Origin: a virus
Taxonomy: Duplodnaviria > Caudoviricetes
Virus record (IMG/VR): IMGVR_UViG_3300009091_000002
Location: 1-56,931 of that record
Direction: 5' to 3' (one strand)
Length of the DNA: 56,931 nucleotides
Positions 15,319 to 51,815 of the stretch are shown here, one piece after another (position 1 is the stretch's first letter; every line of letters starts with the position of its first letter). The position numbers were made by a program, and so were the translations under genes. The notes beneath the pieces are model-generated. The model saw nothing but the letters and a program-made list of their open reading frames with translations, did not search any database and was not told where the DNA came from.

Positions 15319-15320
15319 GG

Positions 15321-35705: not shown

Positions 35706-36005
35706 ATGGCTATACATATTCATATACATACGAAAGATGCTGAAGTTGTTCCTCCACAATGGGGGAAATTTCAACAATATATGAAAAAAGCGTGGGCTGC
35801 TGAACGTGGAAAAGAGTCTGCCCAAAAGAAACAAAATCAAGGGAAGCCAGTTACAAAATCGCCTCAAGAATTTCAAGGAGCAATCAGTGAAAATTTTCAG
35901 CAAGCCAATCTTCTTCTGCAGCAGATGAATAAAGAATATCCTGAATTTACAAAAGGCTTTCCAGCCCATTCTTCTGCAACTGGCTGGCTCAGATTAATAA
36001 AATAA
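35706..36005 (+). CDS. Small protein with HIHIH-TKD leader
   Basis: MAIHIHIHTKD...; directly upstream of the portal. Confidence 0.75.
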   Translation: MAIHIHIHTKDAEVVPPQWGKFQQYMKKAWAAERGKESAQKKQNQGKPVTKSPQEFQGAISENFQQANLLLQQMNKEYPEFTKGFPAHSSATGWLRLIK

Positions 36006-36014
36006 GGCAAATAA

Positions 36015-37952
36015 ATGGCACGCAATAAACAAATAAAAAAAGTCAATGTACAACGTACACAAGACAGATTGTTGCGTGAAGAAACCAAATTGCTCAAGGA
36101 CAAGCCAAAACAGACACAGGATAGTTTCCAGAATTTTGAAATGAATCTTGGCATTGGGTCTAATAATCCAATGTCTTCCAGCACGTATGGATTCAATCCT
36201 ATCACCAGAAACAGGACACTGCTGGAGTGGATTTACCGTGGAAGTTGGCTAGGCGGCGTTGCTTGTGATATAAAAGCTGACGATATGACTCGTGGAGGGG
36301 TTGATATCCTCGGGGAACTTGACCCTGACAACGTACAAGCCATTGAGGAAGAAGCAGTTAGACTTGGAATTTGGAACTCTTTAAATGAAACTCTAAAGTG
36401 GTCAGCACTATATGGCGGTGCTATTGCCGTGCTGCTTATTGACGGCCAAGATAATGAAACGCCATTACGCCTGAACACAATTCGTGAAGGACAATTTTGC
36501 GGCTTACTTTCTATGGATAGATGGATGGTCGAGCCTTCATTGTTCGATTTAGTCACCGATTATGGCCCAAGTTTAGGCTTGCCAAAATATTATCGGGTAA
36601 CAGCTATGGCACCGGCTTTAGTGAACCAGCGTATCCATTACAGTCGTGTAATACGTTTCGATGGCATCAAACTTCCTTATTGGCAAAAAGTAATGGAGAA
36701 TCTTTGGGGAATATCTGTTCTTGAGCGCATGTATGATCGCATGATAGCATTCGATAGCGCAACCACAGGGGCTGCTCAATTAGTTTACAAATCATACATT
36801 CGCAATTATAAAATCAAAGGACTAAGGCAGATTGTTGCCGCTGGCGGAGATGCTCTTACCGGACTATCCGCTTATGTTGACATGATGCGCCGCTTCCAAG
36901 GCATCGAAGGAATGACCCTGTTAGATTCAGAAGACGAGTATAATGCAGACAGCCATGGAGCATTCGGTGGCTTATCGGACATATTAATGCGCTTCATGGA
37001 ACAATGCTCTGGCGCTTTACAGATACCTTTAGTGCGATTATTTGGCCAGTCCCCTTCTGGTTTTAGCACTGGGGATACTGATTTGCGCAATTATTATGAT
37101 ACCATTCGGCAAGGGCAAGAAAAAGACTTAAAAGTTGGTGTCACTAAAATTTATCGGGCAATGGCTTCCTCTCTTGGACAACAAGTTCCAGAAGGCTTTG
37201 GGATTTCTTTCAGAAGTCTATGGCAATTGACCGACATTGAAAAATCTGATATTGCCGGTAAGAACAGTGATACGATATCAAAAGCTGAAGAATCAGGATT
37301 GGTTAGCAGATATATTGCTTTGAAAGAACTGAAACAGCAATCAAAAGTAACAGGCATATTTACAAACATAACTGAAGAAGATATTGATGAGGCAGAAAAT
37401 GAGCCGCCACCAATCCCAGAAGATGTCGAAATAGCAGAAATTAAAGAACAAGGGCAAGTAGAAGCTAGTGAAATTAAAGCTAATGTGGGTGCTAATAGCC
37501 CTGTTCCATCTGGAGGCAGGCCAACAATTCCCACAAAAGAAACAAAACAAATTGAAAGCAACAAGGCACACGATTTCAAGGCGATGGCCGCTGCTGGAAT
37601 AATGTTCATGAATGAATCTGGAGAAATACTACTTCTTAAACGGGCATTGTCTGTTCCAGCGGGAAATACTTGGGGGCTACCAGGCGGCACTATTGAAGGT
37701 GGCGAGAATGCTGAGATGGCAGCAAGACGGGAAGCGATAGAGGAAACCGGAATTGTTTATAATGGACCATTGATGAAGATCGATGAAGGCGGTAATTTTA
37801 CAACCTTTACAGCTTTCATACCTGGAGATTTAAGAATTGTTATAAATTCGGAATCACAAGCTTATATGTGGATAAATCCAAACAATATTCCGGAAGATAT
37901 TGTGGTGCTCCATCCCAACCTCAAACGTGTTTTGGATAAGCTGGGCTATTGA
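36015..37952 (+). CDS. Portal protein (DUF1073-like) fused to C-terminal Nudix hydrolase
   Basis: YRGSW......D..ADDMTR, LYGG, IH.SR, IPLVRLFG.SP.G...TG..D..NYYD; Nudix box GGTIEGGENAEMAARREAIEETG. Confidence 0.9.
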   Translation: MARNKQIKKVNVQRTQDRLLREETKLLKDKPKQTQDSFQNFEMNLGIGSNNPMSSSTYGFNPITRNRTLLEWIYRGSWLGGVACDIKADDMTRGGVDILGELDPDNVQAIEEEAVRLGIWNSLNETLKWSALYGGAIAVLLIDGQDNETPLRLNTIREGQFCGLLSMDRWMVEPSLFDLVTDYGPSLGLPKYYRVTAMAPALVNQRIHYSRVIRFDGIKLPYWQKVMENLWGISVLERMYDRMIAFDSATTGAAQLVYKSYIRNYKIKGLRQIVAAGGDALTGLSAYVDMMRRFQGIEGMTLLDSEDEYNADSHGAFGGLSDILMRFMEQCSGALQIPLVRLFGQSPSGFSTGDTDLRNYYDTIRQGQEKDLKVGVTKIYRAMASSLGQQVPEGFGISFRSLWQLTDIEKSDIAGKNSDTISKAEESGLVSRYIALKELKQQSKVTGIFTNITEEDIDEAENEPPPIPEDVEIAEIKEQGQVEASEIKANVGANSPVPSGGRPTIPTKETKQIESNKAHDFKAMAAAGIMFMNESGEILLLKRALSVPAGNTWGLPGGTIEGGENAEMAARREAIEETGIVYNGPLMKIDEGGNFTTFTAFIPGDLRIVINSESQAYMWINPNNIPEDIVVLHPNLKRVLDKLGY

Positions 37953-37953
37953 T

Positions 37954-39414
37954 ATGACTACTTTAGTTGTTGATGCCAAAACAGTATACAAAGACCCATT
38001 GGTTGTATTGCCTATTGTTTCTGTTGGCACGGGTTTCAAGGAGATGATAGGGACTTCTGATGGCAGCTTATTTATAAATCAAAATACTACTGTTGATCCA
38101 TTAAATAGCACAACAACTAATCTTGCACCAGGCGCTTCATTCATTGGCCCTGCTGTATCCGATTTGAATTACACTGCAATTCAATTCACCATAAAATCTG
38201 ATCAGCTTTGTCTTATCTATGTTGATCAAAGTCCAGATGGCACGAATTGGGACATTACTGATGCTTATGAAGCATACCCAACCATTGGCACAGGCAGCTC
38301 TACGCAATTGGTTGCATCATATTATCGGATAAGAGTAACTAACGCAGGGTCTGCAACCACTACTTATTTGCGCTTGCAAACAATACAAGTTCCATTTCTA
38401 TCTTCATTGCCAAGAGCATTAGATGATGATGGCTTTTTGAAAACGTCTAATCAAGCCAATCAAGACCGCAACGGATTTGTTAATCAATTGTCGCCTAATG
38501 GTGAAATGCTTTCTGTGCCAACATATCGGCTTATAGGCTCTGCATTCCCAGGAAATACTCTTGATACAGCGTTCTGGACTCCTTCTGTTGGCATAGGCGG
38601 AACAGTAGCGCCGACAAATGGAATGCTGATACTGAACACAGGAGCAACGGCTAATAATTCAGTTTCAGTAACATCAGCCCAAACAGCCCGATATGTCACT
38701 CGGCAAATAAATAAATTCAGCTGTAAGTTGCAGCTTCCAGACCCAGGCACAGCCAACAATACACGGCGCATTGGAGCATTCACAGCCAATGATGGAGCAT
38801 TTTTTGAGGTAGCAGGGACATTAGTGTCCCTTGTAACTCGCAGTAATGGTGCTGAGACAGCGAGAATAGTAAATGGCAATTTCAATGGCAGGTTAGGCAG
38901 TACTGTAAAAACAGGAAGCATGCTAGAACATTTGTATGAGATTATTTATAATTTGCAGTATGTTTATTTTCTGGTGGATGGAATAGTTTCGCATATGATG
39001 AAATTCAATACGGCATGGTCATCCACTTTAGATTTGCCGATAAGAATAGAGAACACAAATTCAGGCGGTTCAATAACACCAGTTATCGCGAACGTCCTAA
39101 GTGCTTCAATAATGAAATATGGAATTGCGCAGACACAAGTAGTAAGTGATTTTCAACAAGGATTGACTGCGGGTAGGCAACTTAAATTAGGCTCTGGCAA
39201 TATTCACGGCATTGTTTTAAGCGGGATTACGAACAATTCAATTGCAACATTTTATGATGGAACATCGACTGCTGGGCGGGTAATATGGACATCAGGAGCA
39301 TTAGCCTCGAATGGACTGCCATTCGAAATAGATACCAAAGGCGTTGCTTTTTATGCTGGGCTATTCATCGCAGTCACTAGCGCTGCGCTTAATATTCTGA
39401 CCATGTATGAATGA
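37954..39414 (+). CDS. Beta-rich virion/accessory protein (lectin-like region possible)
   Basis: Long T/G/S-rich ORF; QS.DG.NWD, YYRIRVTN; likely start ATG 37954. Confidence 0.65.
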   Translation: MTTLVVDAKTVYKDPLVVLPIVSVGTGFKEMIGTSDGSLFINQNTTVDPLNSTTTNLAPGASFIGPAVSDLNYTAIQFTIKSDQLCLIYVDQSPDGTNWDITDAYEAYPTIGTGSSTQLVASYYRIRVTNAGSATTTYLRLQTIQVPFLSSLPRALDDDGFLKTSNQANQDRNGFVNQLSPNGEMLSVPTYRLIGSAFPGNTLDTAFWTPSVGIGGTVAPTNGMLILNTGATANNSVSVTSAQTARYVTRQINKFSCKLQLPDPGTANNTRRIGAFTANDGAFFEVAGTLVSLVTRSNGAETARIVNGNFNGRLGSTVKTGSMLEHLYEIIYNLQYVYFLVDGIVSHMMKFNTAWSSTLDLPIRIENTNSGGSITPVIANVLSASIMKYGIAQTQVVSDFQQGLTAGRQLKLGSGNIHGIVLSGITNNSIATFYDGTSTAGRVIWTSGALASNGLPFEIDTKGVAFYAGLFIAVTSAALNILTMYE

Positions 39415-39551
39415 AATATGCGCCGGTAAAAATTGTCGAGCCAAAGAAGGCAGAAATCATTCAATTGAATGCCTATTTGAGCATTTTATGGCTTATACTG
39501 GAGGCCACAAAGAATCTATAGCTATCCAAACAATGTTGGAGAAAGCGTATT

Positions 39552-40355
39552 TTGATGGTTATGAAGCTGGAAAAAATGAAAAATAAAGAAAGAATTCAGA
39601 AAAGACGTGCACGGGAACGCTTTAATGTGGCTAGCCGCCTGGAACGTGAGTATCTTAGAAGCCTTCGCCATATTGTTAAGCAGATAGATGTGATGACTAA
39701 AAGCATCATTAATAAGAATATGACTGAAGACGAGTTAAAAACTGCGCATGGACAACTATCAAATATGTTGCGCGGTTATGGCGAGACGATTAAACCATGG
39801 GCAAAATCAGTTGCCAATAAGATGGTAGCAAAGATTGCTAAGGTAGATGAATCTAATTGGGTGAAGCTTGGCAGAGAAATGAATAAATCCCTTAATCAAG
39901 AACTAAGTGAAGCGCCAACAGGCAATATGCTGATTCAATTCCTTTCTGAGCAAGTTAAGCTGATTACAAGTTTGCCTAGCGAGGCAGCTGACAGAGTTCA
40001 CAAGATGGCGCTGGAAGGAATAATCACAGGTGAACGCGCTGACAGTATCGCTCGTAAGATTCTACAAACAGGAAATGTTAGCCAGTCAAGAGCGCAATGT
40101 ATAGCCAGAACAGAAGTTGCAAGAGTTGCATCTGGGCTGACGATGGCTAGGAGTAAGCATGTAGGAAGCACACATTATTATTGGCGTTCGTGCGAAGATG
40201 GCGATGTGCGAGAAAGCCATAAAAAGATGGACGGAAAGATTTGCGAATTCGCAGCACCGCCTGAAGTCGAACCTGGAAAATATTATCATGCAGGGATGAT
40301 TTACAACTGTAGATGCTATATCGAACCGATATTAGATTATGAAATGAAACATTAA
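39552..40355 (+). CDS. MuF / SPP1 gp7-like head morphogenesis protein
   Basis: RA..IARTE, Y.W....D..VR.SH..MDG, H.G..YNCRC...P. Confidence 0.92.
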   Translation: MMVMKLEKMKNKERIQKRRARERFNVASRLEREYLRSLRHIVKQIDVMTKSIINKNMTEDELKTAHGQLSNMLRGYGETIKPWAKSVANKMVAKIAKVDESNWVKLGREMNKSLNQELSEAPTGNMLIQFLSEQVKLITSLPSEAADRVHKMALEGIITGERADSIARKILQTGNVSQSRAQCIARTEVARVASGLTMARSKHVGSTHYYWRSCEDGDVRESHKKMDGKICEFAAPPEVEPGKYYHAGMIYNCRCYIEPILDYEMKH

Positions 40356-40372
40356 ACGATACAGGAACAGAA

Positions 40373-40654
40373 ATGAATACATCAGGCTTACGCGGTACAA
40401 TATCAGCCCAGAACCCAAGCCCAGTTGTGGTTCCTATTTTAAACACATTTGGCAGTGGTAATCCAGCACCCCCTTTTAGTGCAGTATTCACAACAGCAGC
40501 AGGGGCAGCAACTTTTTCTTTTGATGGTGGCATAACTTATCAGGTCATAGCAGCTTCTGTGTCAGGCTCTGGCCAATTAGTTTATTTCATAAACAATCCA
40601 TTGACGCATGTTAAATTCACAGGTGCCAATGCGGAAAAATATCAAATATTATGA
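40373..40654 (+). CDS. Small beta-rich hypothetical protein
   Basis: 93 aa, AGGA RBS. Confidence 0.65.
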   Translation: MNTSGLRGTISAQNPSPVVVPILNTFGSGNPAPPFSAVFTTAAGAATFSFDGGITYQVIAASVSGSGQLVYFINNPLTHVKFTGANAEKYQIL

Positions 40655-40881
40655 GTAATGATATAAGATTCCCACAAAATTATGACCCTGGCCATCCATT
40701 AACTTTGCAAGGAAATAGCAGCAGCAATCCAACGCCTGCGCAATCCTTAGCTAGTTATCCAGTTGCTTTGGTATACCGATTTCCTGATTTGGATTCTATA
40801 CCATCTAATTATGCTGGAATAGCACAAGTTGGGCAAACTCTGGTAATTTGCGATGGTTCAGGAAGCGCTAGACAAATTTAA
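40651..40881 (+). CDS. Hypothetical protein sharing a motif with the SGNH protein N-terminus
   Basis: F..L..IP....G.A.VG.....DG. Confidence 0.6.
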   Translation: MSNDIRFPQNYDPGHPLTLQGNSSSNPTPAQSLASYPVALVYRFPDLDSIPSNYAGIAQVGQTLVICDGSGSARQI

Positions 40882-40898
40882 AACGATAGGGTGATGCG

Positions 40899-41198
40899 AT
40901 GAACCAATACACGAATGCAGCAATATATATAGCTCTTGGATTAATCGGGGCAACAGGCCATTGGATCAAGAAAAGGTACATTGACAAAACAACAACAGAC
41001 ACTTTCAGTTTGTACATATTTGGAAACTTTCCAGCCACTTTGAGGGCCATTGGCGCAATTTCTTTTGCCGAAATGAATTTGTCATTTTTGCAAGCAAATG
41101 ATTTATTATCATTGCAGAATGTGATTGGCGCAATAACCGCTGGATACATGTTTGACTCAGGAATCAACAAAGCATCCGATGCTGGAGAAATAAAATGA
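40899..41198 (+). CDS. Small membrane protein (holin candidate)
   Basis: 2-3 hydrophobic segments, charged C-terminus, 99 aa. Confidence 0.5.
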   Translation: MNQYTNAAIYIALGLIGATGHWIKKRYIDKTTTDTFSLYIFGNFPATLRAIGAISFAEMNLSFLQANDLLSLQNVIGAITAGYMFDSGINKASDAGEIK

Positions 41199-42604
41199 CA
41201 CTACGCATAATAGGCCCAATAGATTCACAAAATCATTCCTTTACTTATGATGGGCATGGTAGAATAACCGGCATAATAGATCAAGCAGGCAACCTTTCCA
41301 ATGTTGTAACCAATTTCAACACCCTAGCAGATATACCGCCTGGGTTTGTTGGAACTGCTGCCGTAGGATTTGATACGTTTATCGGTGATGGTATCAGCTT
41401 TATACCTTCTTCAATAAAATCAGGGGCCGTTAAATTTCATGGTAATTTAGCCACCTTAAAAGAGCAGTACAGGACATTAGCCAATGCTATACGCGCAACG
41501 CTGAACGGAACAGCTAATACCAGAATATTACTTAATGGTGACTCAACAACACTAGGATCAGGGGAGCTTTCGACGTTACAAGTACCTAATTCGTATGTTC
41601 ACCGTGCAGCGGAAATTATTAATAAAAGAATTGTTAAAGGTGGATGGCAGTCAAACTACGGGAGCATTGTCGGTGGCCCAACATTTACTTTTAGCACGCA
41701 AGATACGAGACTATTAGATTATCCTGCCGGGTGGTCCACATTCGACCTCGGGACAGTTGGCAATAATACTAACAAGGGGAGGTCGATAGGCGGCAGTCTG
41801 GCTTATAACAACACGACAACTAACCCGATTACGTTTACACCATCGGCAGTTACAGATACGCTGGATGTCTACTATGTAGATGTCGGAGCAGGCTATAACA
41901 CGTTTAGTGTAAAGGTTGGCGGAGTACAAATTGGGGCATTAGCTGCGCCAACTGGAAGCGCGAGCATTAAAAAGTTATCAGTATCTACAGGTGTTGCCGC
42001 AGCTCTTAACACCTATACTATACAGCGAGAGGTAACTGGCACTGGCGCTATGATTGTAGGGTTTGAAGCATATAACTCAGCAGAGAAGGAGATAACATTT
42101 GTTAATGCTGGCTGTGGCGGAACATTCATTGATACTAATCTAGCACAAACAACAACAGCAACTTATTACACAGCATTAAAAATGCTTACTGACGCCACAT
42201 CAACAGTAAAATTCAACGCAGTATGTATTAATTTTGGCATTAACCATTGGTTAAACTCTACTGCACAAACAGCTGTAAATTTTGAGTCGTCGTTAAATTA
42301 TGCGGTTTCTACATTAGTTACAGCAGGAATTCCTGTGGTGTTATTTATACCGCCAAAGTCAGGATTAACAGTTGGCTCTCCGTTAGTGACTGATGCAATA
42401 ATGCAGGGCTATGTCGATGCTATTTATCGCACAGCAACGACCTACAGCCTGGCAGTAATTGATATTTATTCAAAATTTGGCAGCAATGCAACTGCCAAAA
42501 CATTGGGGTATATGCACACTGATAATGTACACATTACCAATGTCGGGTACAGCAAAATAGCGTCATATTTTGCTGATTTTATTAATTATTTGGTTACTGA
42601 CTAG
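41195..42604 (+). CDS. SGNH/GDSL hydrolase-domain protein
   Basis: Block I GDSTT, block II NAG.GG, block III FGIN, block V D.VH. Confidence 0.82.
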   Translation: MTLRIIGPIDSQNHSFTYDGHGRITGIIDQAGNLSNVVTNFNTLADIPPGFVGTAAVGFDTFIGDGISFIPSSIKSGAVKFHGNLATLKEQYRTLANAIRATLNGTANTRILLNGDSTTLGSGELSTLQVPNSYVHRAAEIINKRIVKGGWQSNYGSIVGGPTFTFSTQDTRLLDYPAGWSTFDLGTVGNNTNKGRSIGGSLAYNNTTTNPITFTPSAVTDTLDVYYVDVGAGYNTFSVKVGGVQIGALAAPTGSASIKKLSVSTGVAAALNTYTIQREVTGTGAMIVGFEAYNSAEKEITFVNAGCGGTFIDTNLAQTTTATYYTALKMLTDATSTVKFNAVCINFGINHWLNSTAQTAVNFESSLNYAVSTLVTAGIPVVLFIPPKSGLTVGSPLVTDAIMQGYVDAIYRTATTYSLAVIDIYSKFGSNATAKTLGYMHTDNVHITNVGYSKIASYFADFINYLVTD

Positions 42605-42734
42605 GCTTAAATTATGATTTATCTATACCTATCAGCAGCCGTGGCGCGCATCATCGGTGGCCTGTATGCCTGGGCTAAAATACAGGGCTCACGGGGATTG
42701 ATCGCCGATTATGCCATAGTCCTTGAGGCAATAA

Positions 42735-43298
42735 TTGATAGCACATCGGCCAAGTCTAGTGCAACAAAACCGCCGAAAAACTGAACGAAGGAAGACAAGG
42801 CTGATGGAGGCAGGTAGACAACCCGTAGAATCTGAATTGGATAGGCTTGGCGCTATGATAGGCCACGAAGGAAGAGCAGAGGACCAGATGATGTTAACTA
42901 TTTTACACGGTCTAGCAACAGTTATAACTTATCAAGCAAAAGAGCTTAAAGAACATTCTGCTTCGCAACAAGCTCAATTTGAAGTGCACCAGAAAAGGAT
43001 AAATGAGCATGAAAAAATAGTCATAAAAGGGGAAACATCTTGGCGATGGATTACCATTATACTTAGTGGATTGAGCATTTGTTTTTTGAGTCTATTTTCA
43101 TACGGATATTTTTTAATTGCCGATATAAGGGATAGTGTGAAAGCTCAGCAAGCGATAGATGACTATATCAATAAAACACAAACTAATGCTGTTGTTGAAG
43201 GCAATACAAAAATAATTGAACAAAGTAGCAATCTGGGTAATATCCAGCTTGAAATTGAACGCATCAAAAAACTTAAAGCAGTAAAGGGATCAAAATGA
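42735..43298 (+). CDS. Single-TM coiled-coil protein (start uncertain)
   Basis: Hydrophobic WITIILSGLSICFLSLFSYGYFLI flanked by coiled-coil-like segments. Confidence 0.6.
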   Translation: MIAHRPSLVQQNRRKTERRKTRLMEAGRQPVESELDRLGAMIGHEGRAEDQMMLTILHGLATVITYQAKELKEHSASQQAQFEVHQKRINEHEKIVIKGETSWRWITIILSGLSICFLSLFSYGYFLIADIRDSVKAQQAIDDYINKTQTNAVVEGNTKIIEQSSNLGNIQLEIERIKKLKAVKGSK

Positions 43299-43852
43299 TA
43301 TTTATTAAATGGTTTTTATTATTAATAGTCAATCTTCTGACTAATTTAGTTAATTATCCACTTGCACCAATTGTGGTATTATTTGCTAATAAAGACGGAT
43401 GGTTGCCTAAATGGCTATGGTGGTTTCAGATGAATGATAATTCGTTGGATGGCGATAGCGGATGGAGAATTGAAAACATGCCATATCGACCCGAAAATAA
43501 TCATTATCAAAGGTGGATCAATCGTTTCCATTGGTTATGGCGTAACAAGCTATATGGATTTTCAAGATCCTGTTTAAGTATTACCTATAACCCAACAACC
43601 GATATAATTATCATTTATGGGGATAATAGGGTTGGCAATGGCCCCGAAGGCAAATCAGGGTGGTGCTATAAAAAGTTGATAAGGGGCAAAAACATTATTG
43701 GTTTTAAATTTTATTACATCAGGCAGTACAAGAATTGGCCTAACAAGTGCATTAGAATTTTAATAGGCTGGAAGTTGCCAAACATTGGCGAAACTGATAA
43801 TGCGGCAACTTTTGGCTTCTCTCCAAGCCCGTGGATGCATTTTATAAAATAA
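43295..43852 (+). CDS. Trp-rich membrane-anchored conserved phage protein
   Basis: N-terminal TM; LP.WL.WFQ..DNSLDGD.GW; WLWRN..YGF; GWKL. Confidence 0.7.
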   Translation: MIFIKWFLLLIVNLLTNLVNYPLAPIVVLFANKDGWLPKWLWWFQMNDNSLDGDSGWRIENMPYRPENNHYQRWINRFHWLWRNKLYGFSRSCLSITYNPTTDIIIIYGDNRVGNGPEGKSGWCYKKLIRGKNIIGFKFYYIRQYKNWPNKCIRILIGWKLPNIGETDNAATFGFSPSPWMHFIK

Positions 43853-43955
43853 TTTTTCATTTCTAAAAAAAAATGGTTACTTTTCTTGGCGGGCATGGTA
43901 TATATATGGCTTTTATAAATTTATAAAATACTACTTTGTTTTTAAGGATTAATAT

Positions 43956-44438
43956 ATGAAAATATTACAGAAATTTATATTAATGGCATTGCTGCCGTTA
44001 ATTGCATTAGCTGCATCGAGCTCAGCGTTTGCGGTTGGGGATGCCACTGCACCATACCAGAATCCAACCTATATCCCAACATTCACAATCCCATCAACTG
44101 GGTCACTCCCAACTGGTGCCCAGAATTTAACCTATAGCACTTTTGGAAGTTCTGTTTTTACCGGATTATTCTCTGGTACGTGTACATCGCTAGCAGCAAC
44201 AGCTCAAGGTTCCGTGGATAATGGAGCGTCCTGGACAACTATCAACGCATACATATATCCTGCCCTCGGTACGGCGGCTGGGACTGTCGCAGTAGCTGGA
44301 GCGATAACAAATGTATTATTCAAACTTAATGTGCAAGGTTTTAACAAAGTGCGAATTGTTGTCTCCGCCCTAGCCGGCACCACTTGCTCCTTCGCAGCAG
44401 CAGAAACGCAAGGCGATTTCAATGGGTTGACTTTGTAA
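43956..44438 (+). CDS. Protein with signal-peptide-like N-terminus and beta-rich body
   Basis: MKILQKFILMALLPLIALAASSSAFA; QGS.DNG.SW..I; AAGGA RBS. Confidence 0.65.
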   Translation: MKILQKFILMALLPLIALAASSSAFAVGDATAPYQNPTYIPTFTIPSTGSLPTGAQNLTYSTFGSSVFTGLFSGTCTSLAATAQGSVDNGASWTTINAYIYPALGTAAGTVAVAGAITNVLFKLNVQGFNKVRIVVSALAGTTCSFAAAETQGDFNGLTL

Positions 44439-44442
44439 TTAT

Positions 44443-45915
44443 ATGACTATTCGGGCATCTGGATACACAGTTTACAAAATTGGTCCAAATCAAGAGTTGA
44501 CCCCAGAAGGATTTCTGCTCTGCAAGGATGTGCCAGTTGCGCGAACAGGAGTGATGATCTATGGGCCAGATGAGACTCCAATCGAATCTGGCCCAGATGG
44601 ATTAGTGAAGATTTACCGCGAAGATGAAGACGTTTTTGATGCCAGAACAATAGCATCAGCAATAGGAAAGCCAGTGACCAATGATCACCCCGAAGAGGAT
44701 GTGACACCAAATACTTGGAAAGAACAAGCTGTTGGTGTAGCACTTCATGTGAGGAGAGGAGAAGGCACTATGGATGACTTATTGCTAATGGATTTGCTGA
44801 TAACAACTAAAGAAGGGATTGAAGCTGTCCAAGGAGGCAAACGTGAAATTTCATTAGGCTATGATGCTGATTATGAACAGCTTGAACCAGGAAAAGGAAG
44901 GCAATCAAATATAATCATCAACCACATCGCATTAGTTGAACAAGGCAGATGTGGTGCTAGGTGTGCAATCAAAGACAAAAAACCAACTAACCAAGAGGAA
45001 AGTCAAATGGCAAATCGCTATGGCACCAGAAAGGCTCAGACTAGCAAAAGAGGGCTTGCAAAAGTCGTGGATTTGCTATTCAAGGCTCACAAAGCAAAAG
45101 ATGCAGAAGAATTGAAAGAAGTTCTTGATGAAGCTGCGAATATGGATGGACTATCTGAAGAAGAAAATGTCGGCAATCTTGACCAAGAATTTAGTCCTTC
45201 TGATGAAAATGGCGACACGCATATTCACATCCATAATGGCGGAGATCAGGCAGTTGGCGAGCCCGATGAAAATGACGAAGGAGGCCGTGCTGAATTTCAA
45301 GATGACGATGACCCGCGTTGGGCATCAAACGAATCAGATCACAATGAGTTTAGGCAGCGCCTAGAAGCATTAGAAGCAAGAATTGGCAAAAGTACCGATA
45401 GTGAAGAATCAGCTACTGAAGCAGCTTTGGATGATGGAGAGGAGCTGGAAGAATTTTTGGAAGAAGAAGCACCAGAGGGCATTCCTGCGAAAGATGCGCG
45501 CAAAGCCCGTGATTCCCGCTATCTTGGCGAAAGCATGAAAGATACCGTGGCTATGGCTGAGATATTGGCGCCTGGCATTAAGGTTCCAACCTATGATAGC
45601 AGGTCAACTCCAAGCATTACGGCAAAGAAGATTTGTAGTTTGCGAAGACAAGCTCTTGATATTGCTTATGCAGTCCCAGCAAATCGGGCAATGTTCAGCG
45701 ATATAATTGGCAATAAGAAATTGGATACAAGCAGAATGACGTGTGATGCTATTCGCACAGTATTCAAAACAGCATCAGCTTTAAAACGTCAAAGCAACAA
45801 TGGTATGGGCGTTAGAGATTCCATCATGAATCTTCAAGCGGTAAAGCCTGCTAAGCCGATGACTATAGAAGATATAAATGCTGCTAATGCTGCTTATTAT
45901 ACGTCTAAAAAATAA
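44443..45915 (+). CDS. Prohead protease/scaffold (DUF2213-like)
   Basis: TPEGFL.C.DVP.ARTG...Y, GKPVT.DHP, EIS.GY, NHIALV..GRCG..C; acidic scaffold C-terminal half. Confidence 0.9.
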   Translation: MTIRASGYTVYKIGPNQELTPEGFLLCKDVPVARTGVMIYGPDETPIESGPDGLVKIYREDEDVFDARTIASAIGKPVTNDHPEEDVTPNTWKEQAVGVALHVRRGEGTMDDLLLMDLLITTKEGIEAVQGGKREISLGYDADYEQLEPGKGRQSNIIINHIALVEQGRCGARCAIKDKKPTNQEESQMANRYGTRKAQTSKRGLAKVVDLLFKAHKAKDAEELKEVLDEAANMDGLSEEENVGNLDQEFSPSDENGDTHIHIHNGGDQAVGEPDENDEGGRAEFQDDDDPRWASNESDHNEFRQRLEALEARIGKSTDSEESATEAALDDGEELEEFLEEEAPEGIPAKDARKARDSRYLGESMKDTVAMAEILAPGIKVPTYDSRSTPSITAKKICSLRRQALDIAYAVPANRAMFSDIIGNKKLDTSRMTCDAIRTVFKTASALKRQSNNGMGVRDSIMNLQAVKPAKPMTIEDINAANAAYYTSKK

Positions 45916-45957
45916 GATGCATTCAACCAATTATTAAAATTTTTAAAGGCACATAAG

Positions 45958-46512
45958 ATGAAAAAGATTAGAGCAAGAACAAAAGATGTAGCTTTCAAAT
46001 ACAGAATGGGTGCTGGGTATCCAGGTGATGTCACAAGAACCCATCCTGTTGATATTTATCCTGAGCTAGCAGATGCGACAATTCCGCCTACCTTGGCAGG
46101 CCAAGGCGTTATTCTGGATGCAACTTCCCACCGCGTTAGAAAACTTGATGCAGCAACTGACGGTGTGACAGGGGCAATTGCTCTATATGGCATCACAGTT
46201 CGCATATATCCATTCCAGCAAGCACAAACTACAACCAACTTTGGTGCTGTCCCTATCGGGGGTGGGCCACTGCCTGTTTCTGGTGAGGTTGATATTCTGA
46301 GGCGCGGCGGAATCATCGTCCAAGTGCCAGCAGGGCAAACACCTGTAAAAGGTGGTGCTGTATTCATCTGGAATGTTGCAACATCTGGTGCGCATATTCA
46401 AGGCGGTTTTGAAGCGGTTGACGGCACAACAAATACTATCGACGTAAGTAACGCTGTGTTCAACAGTGGCGTTGATGCCAATGGATTTGCTGAATTAATT
46501 TTCAATAATTAA
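45958..46512 (+). CDS. Head decoration/cement protein
   Basis: YRM..G.PGD.TR, G..VR.YP, .LRRG.I.V; between scaffold and capsid genes. Confidence 0.8.
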   Translation: MKKIRARTKDVAFKYRMGAGYPGDVTRTHPVDIYPELADATIPPTLAGQGVILDATSHRVRKLDAATDGVTGAIALYGITVRIYPFQQAQTTTNFGAVPIGGGPLPVSGEVDILRRGGIIVQVPAGQTPVKGGAVFIWNVATSGAHIQGGFEAVDGTTNTIDVSNAVFNSGVDANGFAELIFNN

Positions 46513-46542
46513 TTAAAAGCATCAACAATTCACTAATTCAAA

Positions 46543-47670
46543 ATGGGAAAGAACATGAAAAAGAGATTTAAAACAAAAGATGGACTGACTTTTGACCAAT
46601 CATACCATCAAGTCATCGACGGCCAAGGCACCCAGCGCGGCAAGGCTTTTGATCAGGCCTATATGACGCGCGATGGTCGCACCGTCGATTCAACGGGTTC
46701 GTTTTTAGTTGGCGAGTTGGAACGGCTTGACTTATCCCTTCACAAACCTTTGGCGGCTGTTACTTGGGGACGCGATATTGATTTACGTGAGGATGTAACC
46801 ATTGCTGATGATGTATCTTCATTTACCATTTCATCATTCGCATCTGCTGGTGGCTTAGGCCAAGGTCAAGGAGTTGGTACTGGAAAATCATGGATTGGCC
46901 GTAAAGCCAATCAAGTTCCAAATACAAGCGTTGATATTGCCAAAATTGCAAACCCATTAACGCCTTGGGGAAACGAACTGGCTTATACCATCTTTGAATT
47001 AGAAGCTGCTGCCCGTCTTGGCCGCCCTATTGATCAGCAAAAGTTTGAGGCTTTGCAATTGAAGCATCAAATGGACATCGATGAGCAGGTATATGTTGGA
47101 GATACAGGCTTGTCCCTAGGTGGCTTGGTTAACCACCCATTGGTTTCCGCTTATGGAACGGTTGCTTCTGTGTCCACAGGTGTCTCCGGATTCACCCAGT
47201 TTGCTAAAAAGACTGCTGATGAGATTCTTGCTGATATCAATAGTTGGTTAATCTCTGTTTGGGCCGCTTCCGCTTATGCTGTTATCGCGAAGGATATTTT
47301 ATTGCCCCCTTCCCAGTACGGATATTTAAGCACCCAAAAAGTTTCTCAGGCCGGTAATGTTTCAATCCTGAAATACATTCTGGAAAACAATATCTATACC
47401 CAATCAGAAGGCAAACCGATCAGCATTCAGCCACTGAAATGGCTGGCTGGATCTACTGATGCTGGTTTGGCAACTGCAATTGGAAACGGTGGCCTTGACC
47501 GTGCTGTGGTTTACAGCAAAGACAAAGATCGCGTGCGCTTTCCAATGACGACTTTGAATCGCACCCCAGTGCAGTTTGATTCTATCTTCCACAAATCAAC
47601 TTACTTTTGCAAGTTGGGTGCTGTTGAGGTCGTATATCCAGAAACACTAGGATATTTTGACGGGCTATAA
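46543..47670 (+). CDS. Major capsid protein (DUF2184-like)
   Basis: FLVGELERLD....PL...TW.RDI, EL..A...GRPID.QK, D.D..VY.GD, GL.N, VYPET..Y.DG. Confidence 0.9.
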   Translation: MGKNMKKRFKTKDGLTFDQSYHQVIDGQGTQRGKAFDQAYMTRDGRTVDSTGSFLVGELERLDLSLHKPLAAVTWGRDIDLREDVTIADDVSSFTISSFASAGGLGQGQGVGTGKSWIGRKANQVPNTSVDIAKIANPLTPWGNELAYTIFELEAAARLGRPIDQQKFEALQLKHQMDIDEQVYVGDTGLSLGGLVNHPLVSAYGTVASVSTGVSGFTQFAKKTADEILADINSWLISVWAASAYAVIAKDILLPPSQYGYLSTQKVSQAGNVSILKYILENNIYTQSEGKPISIQPLKWLAGSTDAGLATAIGNGGLDRAVVYSKDKDRVRFPMTTLNRTPVQFDSIFHKSTYFCKLGAVEVVYPETLGYFDGL

Positions 47671-47771
47671 GCTACTTTAACGACCTATAGTTTATTTCCG
47701 AAATAAAGCGCATTATAATATCCCTGAACTTAACTTAACAGAACAGGGATATTAAACCAAACAGGTGTAAC

Positions 47772-48248
47772 ATGGCTAAAGTTGAAAAAACGACTATCGT
47801 AGAATCCTCAACTACGGATAGTATACAAGAGGAACCAACTGGACCAGCAGAGAACGAATTGAAATCTGATGCTACCGAAGAAAAGCAGGCACCAATTGAC
47901 CCAAATCTGGTTGTTGCGGTTGTTAAAAAACGTTACAAAATTGTCATGCCTGACGGTGCCACAATTACCCATGAGCCAGGTCACGTAACGATGCCAAGGG
48001 AACAAGCCGAACATTGGTATGCTATTACTAATGGAACTGCCATAATCGGAGTCCCAGATAATGGCGATTTGAACGGTGTTGGCGCTAAAGCAAGAATTGC
48101 TGGAATCATTGAAACTTTGCAATCCAAGATTGTGGATATAATTTCATTTGAAGAGCAGCACAAAGGATTATCCGATAAACAAAAAGAAGATTTAATTAAA
48201 TCGTCCAAATTTGTTGAAGGTGCTTTGAAATTGCTTGGGAGCTTGTGA
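47772..48248 (+). CDS. Hypothetical head-associated protein
   Basis: PG...MP...AEHWY motif; directly after capsid gene. Confidence 0.65.
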
Positions 48249-48469
48249 TGCCATTAATTCAATCAACAAGTAAAAAGTCTCTTGGTGAGAATATCGGCAA
48301 AGAGATTAATGCAGGCAAAGATCCAAAACAAGCTGCTGCCATCGCTTATGCTACGCAACGGGCAAATGATAATGGCACTCCAGAATATGCGATGGATCAA
48401 TTAACAACTATTCCAGAAACAATCACAGCTTGTGATGTGATGGAAAAATCAAGAACTTATGGTGGATAA
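48245..48469 (+). CDS. Small protein with KQA.AIAY motif
   Basis: MPL...SKK...ENI..E..AGK..KQA.AIAY, a pattern common near phage head genes. Confidence 0.7.
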
Positions 48470-48470
48470 A

Positions 48471-48749
48471 ATGGCAAATCACATACATATACATGTTGGA
48501 ACAACTGATAGAAAAAGAACAATAGATGGGAAAATGACGGGAGGGGAAATTTGTTCATATTTTGGAATACCTAGATCACAAATAACAATAACTAACGGAT
48601 CACAAAGGCAAATTGGAAATTGTAAGATTTACAATAAAGATGGCGATTTAATTTTTAAGACTGAAAACGTATGGAATGGGGTTGTTACATTAAATCAGTC
48701 TGAAATATCAGAAATAGGCAGAAAACTTTACAAAGATAAACAAAGCTAA
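48471..48749 (+). CDS. Small protein with HIHIH...TTD/TID leader
   Basis: MANHIHIHVGTTDRKRTIDG; start ATG 48471 with GGTGGA RBS. Confidence 0.75.
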   Translation: MANHIHIHVGTTDRKRTIDGKMTGGEICSYFGIPRSQITITNGSQRQIGNCKIYNKDGDLIFKTENVWNGVVTLNQSEISEIGRKLYKDKQS

Positions 48750-48798
48750 ACAATGATAAATAAATGAAAACTGTAGCAGATTTCAGAGCAGACTTATT

Positions 48799-49386
48799 AT
48801 GAATAATTATTGCGCCTATGTTCACGCAAGACCAAATATCACAGATGCTTCTGGCATTTTCTATGTTGGCAAAGGCACAGTCAAACGGGCTATGAATCTT
48901 AGGCGCAATAAACACCATTCAAATATAGTCAACAAACACGGTGCTGAAAATATTTTAGTTGGAAAGATTGATTGTTCTAGTGAAGCTATTGCTTTTGAAT
49001 TAGAGAAAGGTTTGATTAGATGTTTAAAAAGAATGAATGTAAATCTAACTAATCAAACTGATGGCGGAGAAGGAATCAGCGGTTTAAACCATTCTGAAGA
49101 AACAAAAAAGAAGATAGGAGCATCAAACTCAATTTCTTTAAAAGGGAAAATTCCATCTAAGAAAGCATTTGAAGCTGCTAGAATTGCTTTGACTGGGTAT
49201 AGCCATTCTGAAGAAACAAAAAATAAAATAGGAACTGCCAATAGAGGGCGAATAATGAGCCAAGAATCTATCAAAAAAAATAGATTGGGTCATATTGGCC
49301 AAAGATGGATAACTGATGGAGAAACAAACAAAAGAACTAAAGAATTGGAATTACCAATAGGCTGGAAAATAGGCAGAACCTTATGA
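48799..49386 (+). CDS. Free-standing GIY-YIG-like/NUMOD3 homing endonuclease
   Basis: AYVH.RP......FYVGKG...RA, LTNQTDGGEG, two HSEETK.KIG repeats. Confidence 0.85.
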   Translation: MNNYCAYVHARPNITDASGIFYVGKGTVKRAMNLRRNKHHSNIVNKHGAENILVGKIDCSSEAIAFELEKGLIRCLKRMNVNLTNQTDGGEGISGLNHSEETKKKIGASNSISLKGKIPSKKAFEAARIALTGYSHSEETKNKIGTANRGRIMSQESIKKNRLGHIGQRWITDGETNKRTKELELPIGWKIGRTL

Positions 49387-49853
49387 TAGACGTGGCAACA
49401 TTCCGGTCTCATTTTCCAGAGTTCAATAGCACTACCATGTATCCAAATGCTGGTGTTCAATTTTGGCTTGCGTTTGCTTATCGAATGGTGAACGCAGATA
49501 GATTTGGCACCAACCTTGATATTGGGGTTGAACTATTTACCGCACATTTCATAACTATGGAAGCACGCAGTGTTCTTGAAACTGCTGGTGGTGGCATTCC
49601 TGGTGTGAATGTAGGTGTGCAAAGCAATAAATCTGTTGACCGTATATCTATAGGCTACGATACTGGCGCTGGAACGGAAGAAGGGCAGGGACACTGGAAC
49701 ACTACCACTTACGGTACGCGTTTTATCTGGATGACCAAGATGTTTGGTGCTGGGCCAATTCAACTTGGAGTAGGCGCGGCTCCTGTAGGTGCTGGATTTG
49801 GACAAGCATGGCCAGGACCAAATACGGCTCCTGGATTCTCGACTTTTATGTAA
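49383..49853 (+). CDS. Head-tail adaptor (DUF4054-like)
   Basis: FR..FPEF, LF.AH, KSV..ISI.YD, W..T.YG.RF. Confidence 0.88.
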   Translation: MIDVATFRSHFPEFNSTTMYPNAGVQFWLAFAYRMVNADRFGTNLDIGVELFTAHFITMEARSVLETAGGGIPGVNVGVQSNKSVDRISIGYDTGAGTEEGQGHWNTTTYGTRFIWMTKMFGAGPIQLGVGAAPVGAGFGQAWPGPNTAPGFSTFM

Positions 49854-49868
49854 TTAGGGAACAACGTA

Positions 49869-50204
49869 ATGACCGCTCATATCATTTGCATGTTAAATAA
49901 ACTTCCGCTAGCTATCGCAATGGCAACTACTCTATCTTCTTGCGCCGTAGCAAGAACAACCGATAAATTCATAGATGCGACAAGTGGCAAAGTGATTCGG
50001 GAAACAACTGGCTATATCTGTGAGTTTGGAAGGAGCGAAGCGATGTCTGATTTTGCTGATGTATCTTCAACAAATGGAAGATCTATAACCATAGGTTCGA
50101 CTAAAGGTGATGTTAATGTTCAGGCGATAACTGCGTCTTCAGAAGGGCTAGGAAAAATAATTGGGACAGCAGTTCGGGCAGCTTCTGGAATACCGGCTCC
50201 GTGA
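49869..50204 (+). CDS. Putative lipoprotein
   Basis: Hydrophobic stretch ending in lipobox LSS-C. Confidence 0.6.
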   Translation: MTAHIICMLNKLPLAIAMATTLSSCAVARTTDKFIDATSGKVIRETTGYICEFGRSEAMSDFADVSSTNGRSITIGSTKGDVNVQAITASSEGLGKIIGTAVRAASGIPAP

Positions 50205-50321
50205 ATTAATAAAGCAATTTATAAATCTTAACAGATCAGGGCTGGCATCCAACAAAGGCTGTATTTTTGTTTAATAACCTTTAAGTTGCTTTATTAATTG
50301 ATTAACCGTTATAATTTCTGA

Positions 50322-50870
50322 ATGAATAAGAATATAAAGTTGCTGATTGATAATCTTCCATCCTTTAAAAGGAATTTTAAAGAATTAACTAGTAAGGAAG
50401 TATTCGTTGGAGTTCCTAGCGGTAAAGCAAATAGAAAGGATTCAAAAGAGCCGAACAATGCTATGCTAGCTTACATCCACGATAATGGAAGTCCGGCACG
50501 GAATATTCCGGCCAGACCTTTTATGAAGCCAGGAATTGAAAGGGCACACCGGGATATTGAGAAGGCTATGGAAATCGGGGCGAAACAATGCCTAGACGGC
50601 GCAACAGAAGCTGTGGACATAGCATTACATAGGGTTGGCCTTATCGCCCAACGTTCAATAAGGAATCGAATAAACGAAGGGATTTCACCACCGTTGGCAG
50701 AATCTACTTTAAAGGCAAGAATTAGAAACAAAAAGGCGGTAAAAGGCGCGTTGGCAGAATTGAAAAGACGGGCAGCTGGTAAAGCGGCTAGTGCCACAGT
50801 TAATGCTAAGCCTCTTATACAAACTGGACAACTACGCAACTCAATTAATTATGTAATCAAGGATAAATAA
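50322..50870 (+). CDS. Neck/tail completion protein
   Basis: V.VG.P, NA.LAYIH..G.P..NIPARPF, PL..ST...R, KPLI.TG.LR.SI.Y. Confidence 0.85.
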   Translation: MNKNIKLLIDNLPSFKRNFKELTSKEVFVGVPSGKANRKDSKEPNNAMLAYIHDNGSPARNIPARPFMKPGIERAHRDIEKAMEIGAKQCLDGATEAVDIALHRVGLIAQRSIRNRINEGISPPLAESTLKARIRNKKAVKGALAELKRRAAGKAASATVNAKPLIQTGQLRNSINYVIKDK

Positions 50871-50872
50871 AA

Positions 50873-51100
50873 GTGGCGACTAATATACACATACACGCTG
50901 GTAGTAAAAAAACAATGGATAGTAAAGAATCCGATACTCTAAAAAAATATATACGGGAGCTTAAATCTAACCCCTCTGATCTAGAAGGACTAGTCGCTTA
51001 CGTTGAAGGAGAGGGCGCCTTAATTGCCACAATAGGCGGAAGAGTGGCATCTATTGGAGGGGACCTAAAACGCTTTGGCGGTATGATCAAGAGTAAATAA
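50873..51100 (+). CDS. Small protein with NIHIH...TMD leader
   Basis: GTG start; (M)ATNIHIHAGSKKTMDS. Confidence 0.7.
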   Translation: MATNIHIHAGSKKTMDSKESDTLKKYIRELKSNPSDLEGLVAYVEGEGALIATIGGRVASIGGDLKRFGGMIKSK

Positions 51101-51102
51101 CA

Positions 51103-51552
51103 ATGGCATTGTTAGACGTCAATTTTGTACTTAAAGACCCAGACTTATCGGAGACTTTCACTGTTCGCAGACGCCAACAAGTAATCGATATTCACGGAAG
51201 ATCAACAATAAATGAAACTGATTATTTAGGCACGGTTGGCGTTATTAATGCTGGTGACCCAAACGATTTGAGGCGGGATAATCCTGAGTATGAATTTGCC
51301 ACCAATACAATCAGCCTAGTGACTGATTTTGATTTGATTGGTGAAACTGAAGGATATTTGCCTGATATAGTATTTTGGCGCGGTGCTAATTACACCGTTA
51401 TTTACATCAATCAGTATCCTCAATTCGGACCTGGATTTATACAAGCAGTTTGTACGCAAACAGATAGGCAGGATAAACTTCCACCATTATTCTTAAATGG
51501 ACAAATGGCTTTAAATAATGCTCGCAATAGCAACTTAGCAGGATTATTATAA
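51103..51552 (+). CDS. Head closure / head-tail joining protein
   Basis: LLDV..VL.DPD....F.V.R, PD...W.G..Y.V, ..G.GF..A. Confidence 0.75.
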   Translation: MALLDVNFVLKDPDLSETFTVRRRQQVIDIHGRSTINETDYLGTVGVINAGDPNDLRRDNPEYEFATNTISLVTDFDLIGETEGYLPDIVFWRGANYTVIYINQYPQFGPGFIQAVCTQTDRQDKLPPLFLNGQMALNNARNSNLAGLL

Positions 51553-51815
51553 TGGCAATGCATATACATATACATCTAACAGGGAAGACTTATGACCAAG
51601 GAGAAAGCTATGCCACTTTGTTTAAACTCCGCGAAAAAAAATATACGGAGATTAAAGATCTTCGAAAAGAAATAGTGGATTTAACTAGCCAAATTGAGTC
51701 TTCGAAAGGAGATTACCGTAACCTATTTAAGCAGCGGGAGAAGAAATACTCGCAAATAAAAGAGCTTAATAAGGAGATAGATTCGTTATCCAGAAAAATC
51801 GAAGCCTTGCATTAA
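51552..51815 (+). CDS. Small coiled-coil protein with HIHIH...TYD leader and internal duplication
   Basis: MAMHIHIHLTGKTYDQ; two Y..LFK.REKKY..IK.L.KEI..L...IE units. Confidence 0.75.
   Translation: MAMHIHIHLTGKTYDQGESYATLFKLREKKYTEIKDLRKEIVDLTSQIESSKGDYRNLFKQREKKYSQIKELNKEIDSLSRKIEALH

Follow-up and report, generated by a model that had tools for sequence, protein, structure and literature searches.

A shared His/Ile leader on unrelated head-module proteins of a myovirus lineage and its most likely role as a mark for head loading

The stretch analysed here, IMG/VR record IMGVR_UViG_3300009091_000002 (the window), is the whole 56,931-base contig of a myovirus, in which several small proteins of the late module begin with the same short leader, built around the pentapeptide HIHIH, before they diverge. 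The late module lies on the plus strand and, with genes named via Pfam and PHROGs, starts with the large terminase (32156), continues with an ADP-ribosyltransferase-domain protein, a portal-NUDIX fusion and a MuF-like protein, passes through a DUF2213 protease-scaffold (44443-45915), a cement or minor capsid protein, a DUF2184-type major capsid protein and neck proteins, and has tail terminator, sheath, tube and baseplate genes in its 3' part. No close relative was found in GenBank, where the best tblastn matches to the protease-scaffold of the window reach about 35% identity. The initial annotation had described four small genes with one leader and otherwise divergent products, together with the same pentapeptide in the scaffold half of the DUF2213 protein, and both descriptions hold. 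In a six-frame scan of the 56,931 bases, IHIH occurs at five sites only: four at the starts of the open reading frames (ORFs) at 35706, 48471, 50873 and 51552, each within 6-14 codons of an in-frame stop, and one in the linker of the protease-scaffold at 45220..45234 on the plus strand (residues 260-264, GDTHIHIHNGGD). The degenerate DNA pattern for HIHIH matches the window 4 times against 0.01 expected, and four or more matches arose in 0 of 100 shuffles. HIHIH is found in four of the five copies and NIHIH in the remaining one, with alternation of Ile and His over at least five residues, and in each of the four leader ORFs a T-x-D triplet sits 2-7 residues past the last His.

All four leader genes (H1 to H4) lie on the plus strand. 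H1 (35706..36005; ATG start, 99 residues), just upstream of the portal gene, carries the leader MAIHIHIHTKD in nucleotides 35706-35738; its predicted mature part of 88 residues has a pI of 9.8, and its homologue P0017, at 72% identity, has the leader too. H2 (48471..48749; ATG, 92 residues) begins with MANHIHIHVGTTD (48471-48509) and would leave a mature part of 79 residues with a pI of 9.5; it occupies the slot from the capsid side to DUF4054, in which relatives have leader genes as well. Protein atlas look-ups with H1 and H2 gave no usable match. H3 (50873..51100; GTG, 75 residues) opens with MATNIHIHAGSKKTMD (50873-50920), ahead of a predicted mature part of 59 residues and pI 9.1, and its positional counterpart in the relative L039 reads MAKNIHIHLGKKKTID from an ATG start, with 55% identity over 29 residues. 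In H4 (51552..51815; ATG, 87 residues) the leader MAMHIHIHLTGKTYD (51552-51596) precedes a coiled-coil-like part of pI 9.4, with weak coiled-coil Pfam matches that are all under their cut-offs. The four predicted mature proteins are thus small and basic (6.3-10.1 kDa, pI 9.1-9.8), and none of the four ORFs has a Pfam or PHROG family above cut-off. Between H2 and the DUF4054 head-tail gene stands a homing-endonuclease-like gene (48799-49386; NUMOD3, 3.8e-08; PHROG homing endonuclease).

Beyond the window, the leader takes the form M-small-x-H-I-H-[IV]-H followed a few residues later by [TAV]-[KR]-D. The 2.9 million viral contigs of IMG/VR were scanned with M-A-x-H-I-H-I-H written as a DNA pattern. 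This returned 40 loci, 34 of which encode homologues of the portal, MuF, protease-scaffold, cement, capsid, neck or tail proteins of the window, at 48-61% identity for the portal and 55-86% for the capsid protein; the other six comprise five chance-like matches in very short or internal ORFs and one short contig that bears a genuine leader. Run against 596 Gb of genomes of bacteria and archaea, this pattern returned 84 stretches, roughly as many as chance would give on a rough estimate, and none of the 80 loci examined has a head-module homologue. The flanks of the IMG/VR loci held more leaders, with Thr, Ser or other residues at position 2 and Val for Ile, up to five leader genes per contig. 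The fetched loci contain 54 distinct leader genes, every one in the morphogenesis module and on its coding strand, and 53 adjoin a recognised conserved gene. Their commonest slot is upstream of the portal (12/54). The gap from the capsid side to DUF4054 holds nine, that from DUF4054 to Neck1 seven and that from Neck1 to the following head protein six; another five stand ahead of the tail terminator, about seven are found in the interval from MuF or the portal to the protease, and two come past the tube gene. A profile of 48 leader N-termini (alignment A4, a set chosen by a regular expression that required the [TAV]-[KR]-D site) matched 143 representative clusters among 1.84 billion proteins at E<=1e-3, from residue 1 in 138 of them. 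The leader is also present in two cultured GenBank phages, Edwardsiella phage vB_EpM_ZHS and Burkholderia phage BgManors32.

Among 55 distinct leader DNAs from the window and its relatives, His is written as CAC 65 times and CAT 45 times, Ile as ATA, ATC and ATT 18, 36 and 40 times, and the four-codon core occurs in 29 DNA versions on contigs of 39-66% G+C. Because third codon positions vary while the residues stay fixed, the leader is conserved at the protein level, as codon differences between the window copies had first indicated. A nucleic-acid signal, acting in translation initiation or regulation, would fit the position of the motif at ORF starts and the likeness in DNA of three window copies. 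Against such a signal stand the free third positions over this range of base composition, the DNA upstream of the four leader ORFs, which shares no similarity before the start region, and the occurrence of the same peptide inside the scaffold ORF; we rejected a nucleic-acid-level explanation on the codon evidence and consider it hardly credible. That the leader is a real, lineage-specific N-terminal module is a near certainty.

The protein that carries the fifth copy (44443..45915, plus strand, 490 residues) consists of a protease at about residues 1-180 (PF09979/DUF2213 over residues 18-179, 2.5e-48, 164.7 bits vs. a cut-off of 22), an acidic linker with the strand, and a C-terminal helical scaffold domain. 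An HxHxH or xIHIH motif is found in 15 of 15 full-length close relatives. Over 13 protease-scaffolds of 35-67% identity, H262 and H264 are invariant and H260 is nearly so, usually within G-D-T-H-[IV]-H-[IV]-H-x-G, in a linker that is acidic, variable in length and poorly alignable. A single-sequence search for related loci returned no relative; in an alignment-based search, relatives were sampled independently of the strand by means of conserved protease and scaffold peptides that exclude it (80 loci of 436 reported). Among the 72 with a complete gene, the scaffold strand is present in 43 and absent in 29. Of the 43 loci whose scaffold has HxHxH, 17 carry canonical accessory leaders (22 leaders over 632 kb), vs. 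0 of the 29 loci without it (0 in 432 kb; Fisher p = 3.6e-5, a value that ignores relatedness); among loci of at least 15 kb the counts are 11 of 21 vs. 0 of 16. In three relatives the protease-scaffold gene has an internal ATG just upstream of the linker strand (L096:10742, L102:9854, L078:5710); a nested scaffold protein from this putative start would begin with the strand, e.g. M-G-G-S-D-A-Q-H-I-H-I-H.

The set of leaders in the window is larger than the initial annotation had it, with a degenerate fifth on the ADP-ribosyltransferase-domain protein and basic variants on the cement and major capsid proteins, a short basic N-terminal stretch closed by T-K-D being found on all three. Of the 11 T-[KR]-D triplets in the 80 window ORFs examined, 4 fall in the N-terminal 25 residues of H1 and these head proteins. 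The ADP-ribosyltransferase-domain protein (33707..34960, plus strand, GTG start, 417 residues; PF03496, 5.5e-16) has the degenerate leader KVRVH...TKD in nucleotides 33707-33766, with TKD at residues 18-20, and then an EHPR...G.F motif; its residues 4-45 are 45% identical to the leader region of the topoisomerase-IB cargo of the relative L006. We regard this protein as a candidate large cargo, comparable in function to T4 Alt. The cement protein (45958..46512, plus strand; PF23982, 3.8e-17; PF22758, 9.1e-14) starts with MKKIRARTKD (45958-45987) and had no match among PDB sequences. The major capsid protein (46543..47670, plus strand; PF09950, 1.2e-70) starts with the leader MGKNMKKRFKTKD (46543-46581) and has more T-x-D triplets (TFD, TRD, TVD) ahead of its conserved core, in a pattern kept across the lineage (..R-A-R-T-R-D-x-x-T-F-D..T-[IV]-D-S-T-G-A-F). 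In Edwardsiella phage vB_EpM_ZHS (L121:7864-8469 and 8526-9695) and in L013, L019, L021 and L099, a signal-peptide-like hydrophobic stretch precedes R-A-R-T-R-D on the cement and capsid proteins, and the protease of such relatives has an N-terminal extension that bears R-T-A-D or T-x-D before G-P-P.

Several lines of evidence bear on the second half of the leader. The site [TAV][RK]D falls within 18 residues in 17 of the 26 leaders found by the His pattern alone vs. 8 of 228 control windows in the same proteins, and in A4 (n=48) position P3 is Thr in 32, Ala in 10 and Val in 5, P2 is Arg in 20 and Lys in 15, and P1' is Ala in 29. Cement relatives have [basic]-x-[basic]-T-[RK]-D directly ahead of the conserved core, and 14 leaderless cement homologues, with ribosome-binding sites of their own and an upstream stop, begin right past the position of the Asp; likewise, 7 capsid homologues, also with their own ribosome-binding sites, begin at M-x-T-[FY]-D, just past the R-A-R-T-R-D position of most others. 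Cargo modules exist either as separate genes with a leader apiece or as parts of longer proteins that have just one, and in six module comparisons homology starts right after x-[KR]-D in fused and separate forms alike. As judged from these alignments, x-[KR]-D behaves as a module junction, and the chain is probably cut after its Asp.

The same N-termini could alternatively be read as a leader that is kept, serving mature virion or assembly proteins as a metal-binding element of the amino-terminal copper- and nickel-binding (ATCUN) type, NH2-X-X-His after Met removal, or as a beta-augmentation element, with possible roles in anchoring to the portal, the neck or the inside of the capsid or in metal-dependent oligomerisation. 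In line with such a role, 47 of 48 A4 sequences have a small second residue and 40 of 48 have His at position 4, values that are partly forced by a pattern that fixed Ala at position 2; M-[small]-x-H, the sequence pattern of an ATCUN site, starts 121 of the 143 representatives; many leader genes lie in neck-gene slots; and peptides in which Ile and His alternate are described as binding Zn or Cu and as self-assembling (PMC8431744). On the other side, free Cu, Ni and Zn are scarce in the cytoplasm. The coupled [TAV][RK]D site points to removal of the leader, and both the leaderless homologues that start exactly past the Asp and the shared junction of fused and split cargo argue against retention, which we consider improbable.

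The enzyme that would cut is the DUF2213 protease. PHROGs assigns the protease-scaffold of the window to head maturation protease (3.8e-49 and others), and AlphaFold2 (AF2) models its N-terminal protease domain with high confidence; in the monomer as a whole the mean predicted local distance difference test score (pLDDT) is 81.7, falling below 50 in the linker at 236-287. The best Foldseek matches of the protease are herpesvirus maturational proteases (probability 0.92-0.99, E 6e-3 to 0.1) and T4 gp21. The assemblin/gp21 fold uses a His/Ser/His triad, and over 69 protease sequences H82 and S137 never vary and H161 hardly does. Cleavage by T4 gp21 falls behind an acidic P1 residue (Glu), with a defined P3. 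For the distant relative XM1, the structural paper only presumes cleavage of the capsid protein from the 30 first residues unseen in the map, and there the prohead protease is not identified with confidence. Sites of the form [KR]D[ASTV] number 154 in scaffold parts vs. 81 +/- 8.5 after shuffling (about twofold) and 98 in cargo vs. 57.9 +/- 7.6 (1.7-fold), in both cases counted over related, hence not independent, sequences.

These observations would also suit a signal for protease recognition only, in which the His/Ile strand is an exosite for the DUF2213 protease, x-[KR]-D is the cutting site and packaging is decided otherwise; the scaffold copy would be a self-severing site, and the leader a removable propeptide that masks or times head-associated proteins. 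Besides the enrichment in scaffolds, three features favour it: [TK][RK]D[AE] sites abound in scaffold linkers that lack the strand; in the scaffolds of several relatives TRD directly follows the His strand, as it does in leaders; and nearly all members of the lineage, those lacking scaffold HxHxH among them, have the basic R-x-R-T-R-D version on their capsid protein, so that the cutting-site half is independent of the scaffold strand. Such a signal leaves unexplained what need dozens of unrelated small proteins, and enzymes directed at the host, should have of a removable leader, and why canonical His leaders are absent from 29 of 29 strandless loci. It is also not exclusive with targeting, the cut leader of T4 being a targeting signal as well. 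We hold recognition by the protease and nothing more to be unlikely, if less so than the other rivals.

What follows the leader is highly diverse. The 143 representatives are 48-951 residues long (median 144) and, once the leader is taken off, fall into 48 BLAST groups, with 40 singletons; none has a Pfam family at 1e-4. The picture of a modular leader on unrelated, variable cargo, drawn by the initial annotation from four genes, is thereby borne out in a much larger set, and its suggestion of anti-defence cargo is borne out for part of it, some cargo being of an injected or anti-defence kind. Among the fetched loci, slightly divergent strands precede an Acb1 phosphodiesterase directed against CBASS (cyclic oligonucleotide-based antiphage signalling system; 4.8e-19), a type IB topoisomerase (1.1e-24) and a weak GNAT match, and the window itself has the ADP-ribosyltransferase. 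One common cargo module right after the leader (L016:1259-1687; P0021) is weakly like ribosome modulation factor (PF04957, 5.6e-4, under cut-off), and P0021 has a precomputed PF04957 label. An E-H-P-R...G-x-F motif follows the leader in 36 of the 143 representatives and in the window ADP-ribosyltransferase, mostly in the slot upstream of the portal; written in full it is about W-E-E-S-[KE]-H-P-R-x(3)-G-[KE]-F-G-x-G-G, after the leader Asp, as seen at L013:7409-7978(-), L019:5845-6093(-), L021:4923-5642(-) and L121:2727-3071.

This motif could be a second contact, e.g. with the portal or with DNA, and together with the slot preference it raises the possibility that the receptor of the leader is the inner face of the capsid or the portal, much as in encapsulins, the scaffold copy competing for or filling the same site. 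The capsid protein does belong to an HK97-type fold family (PF09950; 8hdt match). The capsid and portal are conserved in relatives without the scaffold strand, where leaders are nonetheless absent, and we give a receptor of this kind little chance.

From what is observed directly, i.e. the motif, its position, its specificity to one lineage and operon, its conserved repeat in the scaffold, the way x-[KR]-D acts as a module junction and how varied the cargo is, we surmise that the shared leader most likely marks proteins for loading into the head and delivery to the host. More precisely, we put at about 0.55 the probability that it is a bipartite N-terminal propeptide, combining targeting and cleavage in the manner of the capsid targeting sequence (CTS) of T4, of a single myovirus lineage, defined by its DUF2213 protease-scaffold, DUF2184-type capsid protein and cement protein. 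The first element would be a short amphipathic beta-strand in which His alternates with Ile/Val, two residues past the start Met, and which recurs in the flexible linker of the protease-scaffold; the second, [TAV]-[KR]-D, 0-9 residues further and usually with Ala next, would be the junction for the prohead protease of assemblin/gp21 fold. Cleavage, packaging, the binding partner and ejection, which we infer, would enter as follows. Late in infection, tagged proteins would join the scaffold/protease core of the growing prohead via the first element; cleavage after the Asp would free them within the shell; the scaffold, itself rich in such sites, would be broken down; and the small basic mature proteins, together with enzymes such as the ADP-ribosyltransferase, Acb1 and topoisomerase IB, would remain in the head and exit with the DNA. 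Taken part by part, a role of the leader in incorporation into proheads is somewhat favoured by the evidence, and direct pairing of the leader with the identical strand of the scaffold is a tentative idea, rather less likely to be right than wrong. Further still, leaders and scaffold linker may co-assemble by cross-strand, possibly metal-bridged, beta pairing in the prohead, in what would amount to programmable cargo loading of an HK97-fold shell, with a tag that reveals hundreds of unannotated injected proteins including the anti-CBASS Acb1; this we regard as a speculative and improbable extension.

A number of findings weigh against the targeting propeptide. Co-occurrence of strand and leader is not independent of phylogeny: on a protease-domain tree the state of the strand changes 11 times by parsimony, only 2 of these changes are forced by well-supported branches, and two supported independent pairs are too few for a test, so that the co-occurrence in relatives which the initial annotation had proposed to check stands in the counts (17/43 vs. 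0/29) and not in a phylogenetic comparison. The trait never ran in the opposite direction on the tree. No accessory leader was detected in 26 of the 43 loci that have the strand, so it must have a function within the scaffold itself, and a scan of relatives with a V-I-E-V-K-type strand at the same place in the scaffold gave no matching leaders and no covariation, the only matches being internal starts in the scaffold gene. In the AF2 monomer, inspected for docking of the strand in cis, the scaffold strand is disordered. Complex prediction for the protease-scaffold (alignment A3) with the leader (A4) scored 0.00 in two runs, which lacked controls, and we give it no weight. On the side of cleavage, the spacing from strand to Asp varies from 2 to 11 residues, a poor fit to a single continuous protease subsite; every Foldseek E-value of the protease is weaker than 1e-3; and depletion of [KR]D[ASTV] in proteins that must stay intact is not specific, with ratios of 0.08 for the sheath, 1.06 for the mature capsid protein and 0.96 for MuF. 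The presence of the basic capsid version in relatives without the scaffold strand counts here as well. In solved relatives named by its Pfam families the cement protein is an outer-surface protein, and a prohead protease inside the shell would not obviously reach a leader placed outside. Finally, our literature search found no proteomic or N-terminal sequence data for members of the lineage, including the two cultured phages.

The T4 system offers the nearest precedent. There, a CTS on internal proteins and on Alt is removed by the gp21 prohead protease. Shared with it are a short N-terminal leader on unrelated small basic proteins and on an ADP-ribosyltransferase, followed by a P3-x-acidic-P1 site; a protease whose best Foldseek matches (E >1e-3) suggest the assemblin/gp21 fold; and cargo that would be expected to eject with the DNA and of which some is anti-defence. 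The differences are that the leader described here is of another sequence, alternating His and Ile and ending in T-[KR]-D instead of hydrophobic-x-Glu, that the strand is duplicated in the scaffold and the protease is fused to the scaffold (DUF2213), and that a basic version occurs on the capsid and cement proteins and multi-module cargo is joined by the same site, in a system known so far from its sequence only. By analogy, the CTS together with gp21 is the closest known system in function.

Other systems resemble the leader in part. In Staphylococcus phage 80alpha the capsid and scaffold proteins share an N-terminal leader that is cut by the host protease Prp; it is likewise one short leader on several head proteins, removed at a fixed junction, and differs in that the protease is that of the host, the leader mimics ribosomal protein L27, no cargo family is known, and both host group and motif are others. 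The cargo-loading peptides of encapsulins, usually C-terminal, kept and shell-binding, are alike in that interchangeable cargo enters an HK97-fold shell by means of a short terminal peptide; they differ in their usual end of the protein, in not being removed, in binding shell and not scaffold, and in having no sequence likeness to the leader. In the giant phages phiKZ and SPN3US, propeptides of head and ejection proteins are cut by a prohead protease (PMC5694885, PMC7411985, PMC10052503); there, too, a short consensus with an acidic residue at its end is the processing site of many proteins of the head interior, which are then ejected, as would be the case here. The propeptides differ in being long and unlike in sequence, and the abstracts describe neither a shared strand motif nor a scaffold copy.

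As for the strand itself, designed alternating Ile/His heptapeptides form Zn-dependent catalytic amyloids, whose strands run parallel, with packing on the Ile face and with Zn bound from strand to strand on the His face (PMC8431744). They show the Ile/His alternation of the phage strand and are a physical precedent for strand pairing; they differ in being designed and studied in vitro at high concentration, and pairing or metal binding by the phage strand is conjecture. Zn-bridged designed sheets thus make strand pairing physically plausible and prove nothing for the phage. What sets the present system apart from all of these is the motif, the scaffold copy, the fusion of protease and scaffold, the basic variant that shell proteins carry and the occurrence of cargo as polyproteins. 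In agreement with the initial annotation, which knew of no description of the tag, we found no published description of an HIHIH leader system, whether under DUF2213 processing, CTS and prohead protease or Acb1 packaging, in a search whose scope excluded subscription journals and supplementary files.

If the proposed role is correct, a signature of 15 residues would mark the head-loaded proteins of widespread, hardly studied myoviruses that are known almost only from metagenomes, and at least 143 clusters of proteins without a Pfam family would turn into a delimited list of candidates for injected effectors. Known counter-defence enzymes, Acb1 among them, would be deliverable ready-made; the specificity of the DUF2213 prohead protease would reduce to a simple rule (strand plus T-[KR]-D); and a short tag would be at hand for loading foreign proteins into capsids.

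Several further genes of the window deserve mention. The portal protein (36015-37952; PF06381, 2.6e-94) has a C-terminal NUDIX hydrolase domain (PF00293, 4.6e-15; residues about 525-584), and L004, L006 and L010 have NUDIX-like matches beside portal or leader genes. The part of the head module that leads from the MuF gene to the protease also encodes a GDSL-type lipase/acylhydrolase (41195-42604; PF13472, 9.2e-08) and a DUF7338 membrane-like protein (43295-43852; 1.6e-37). On the minus strand, 13576-17282 hold a cluster for 7-deazaguanine (preQ0-type) synthesis, with GTP cyclohydrolase I, a QueD-like PTPS, QueC and a radical-SAM protein, and a dCTP deaminase-like gene (13027-13563) adjoins it; this cluster and its neighbour suggest that the DNA of the phage is modified. 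The GTP cyclohydrolase I (PF01227, 3.3e-68) is split by an intein (PF14890, 3.1e-14).

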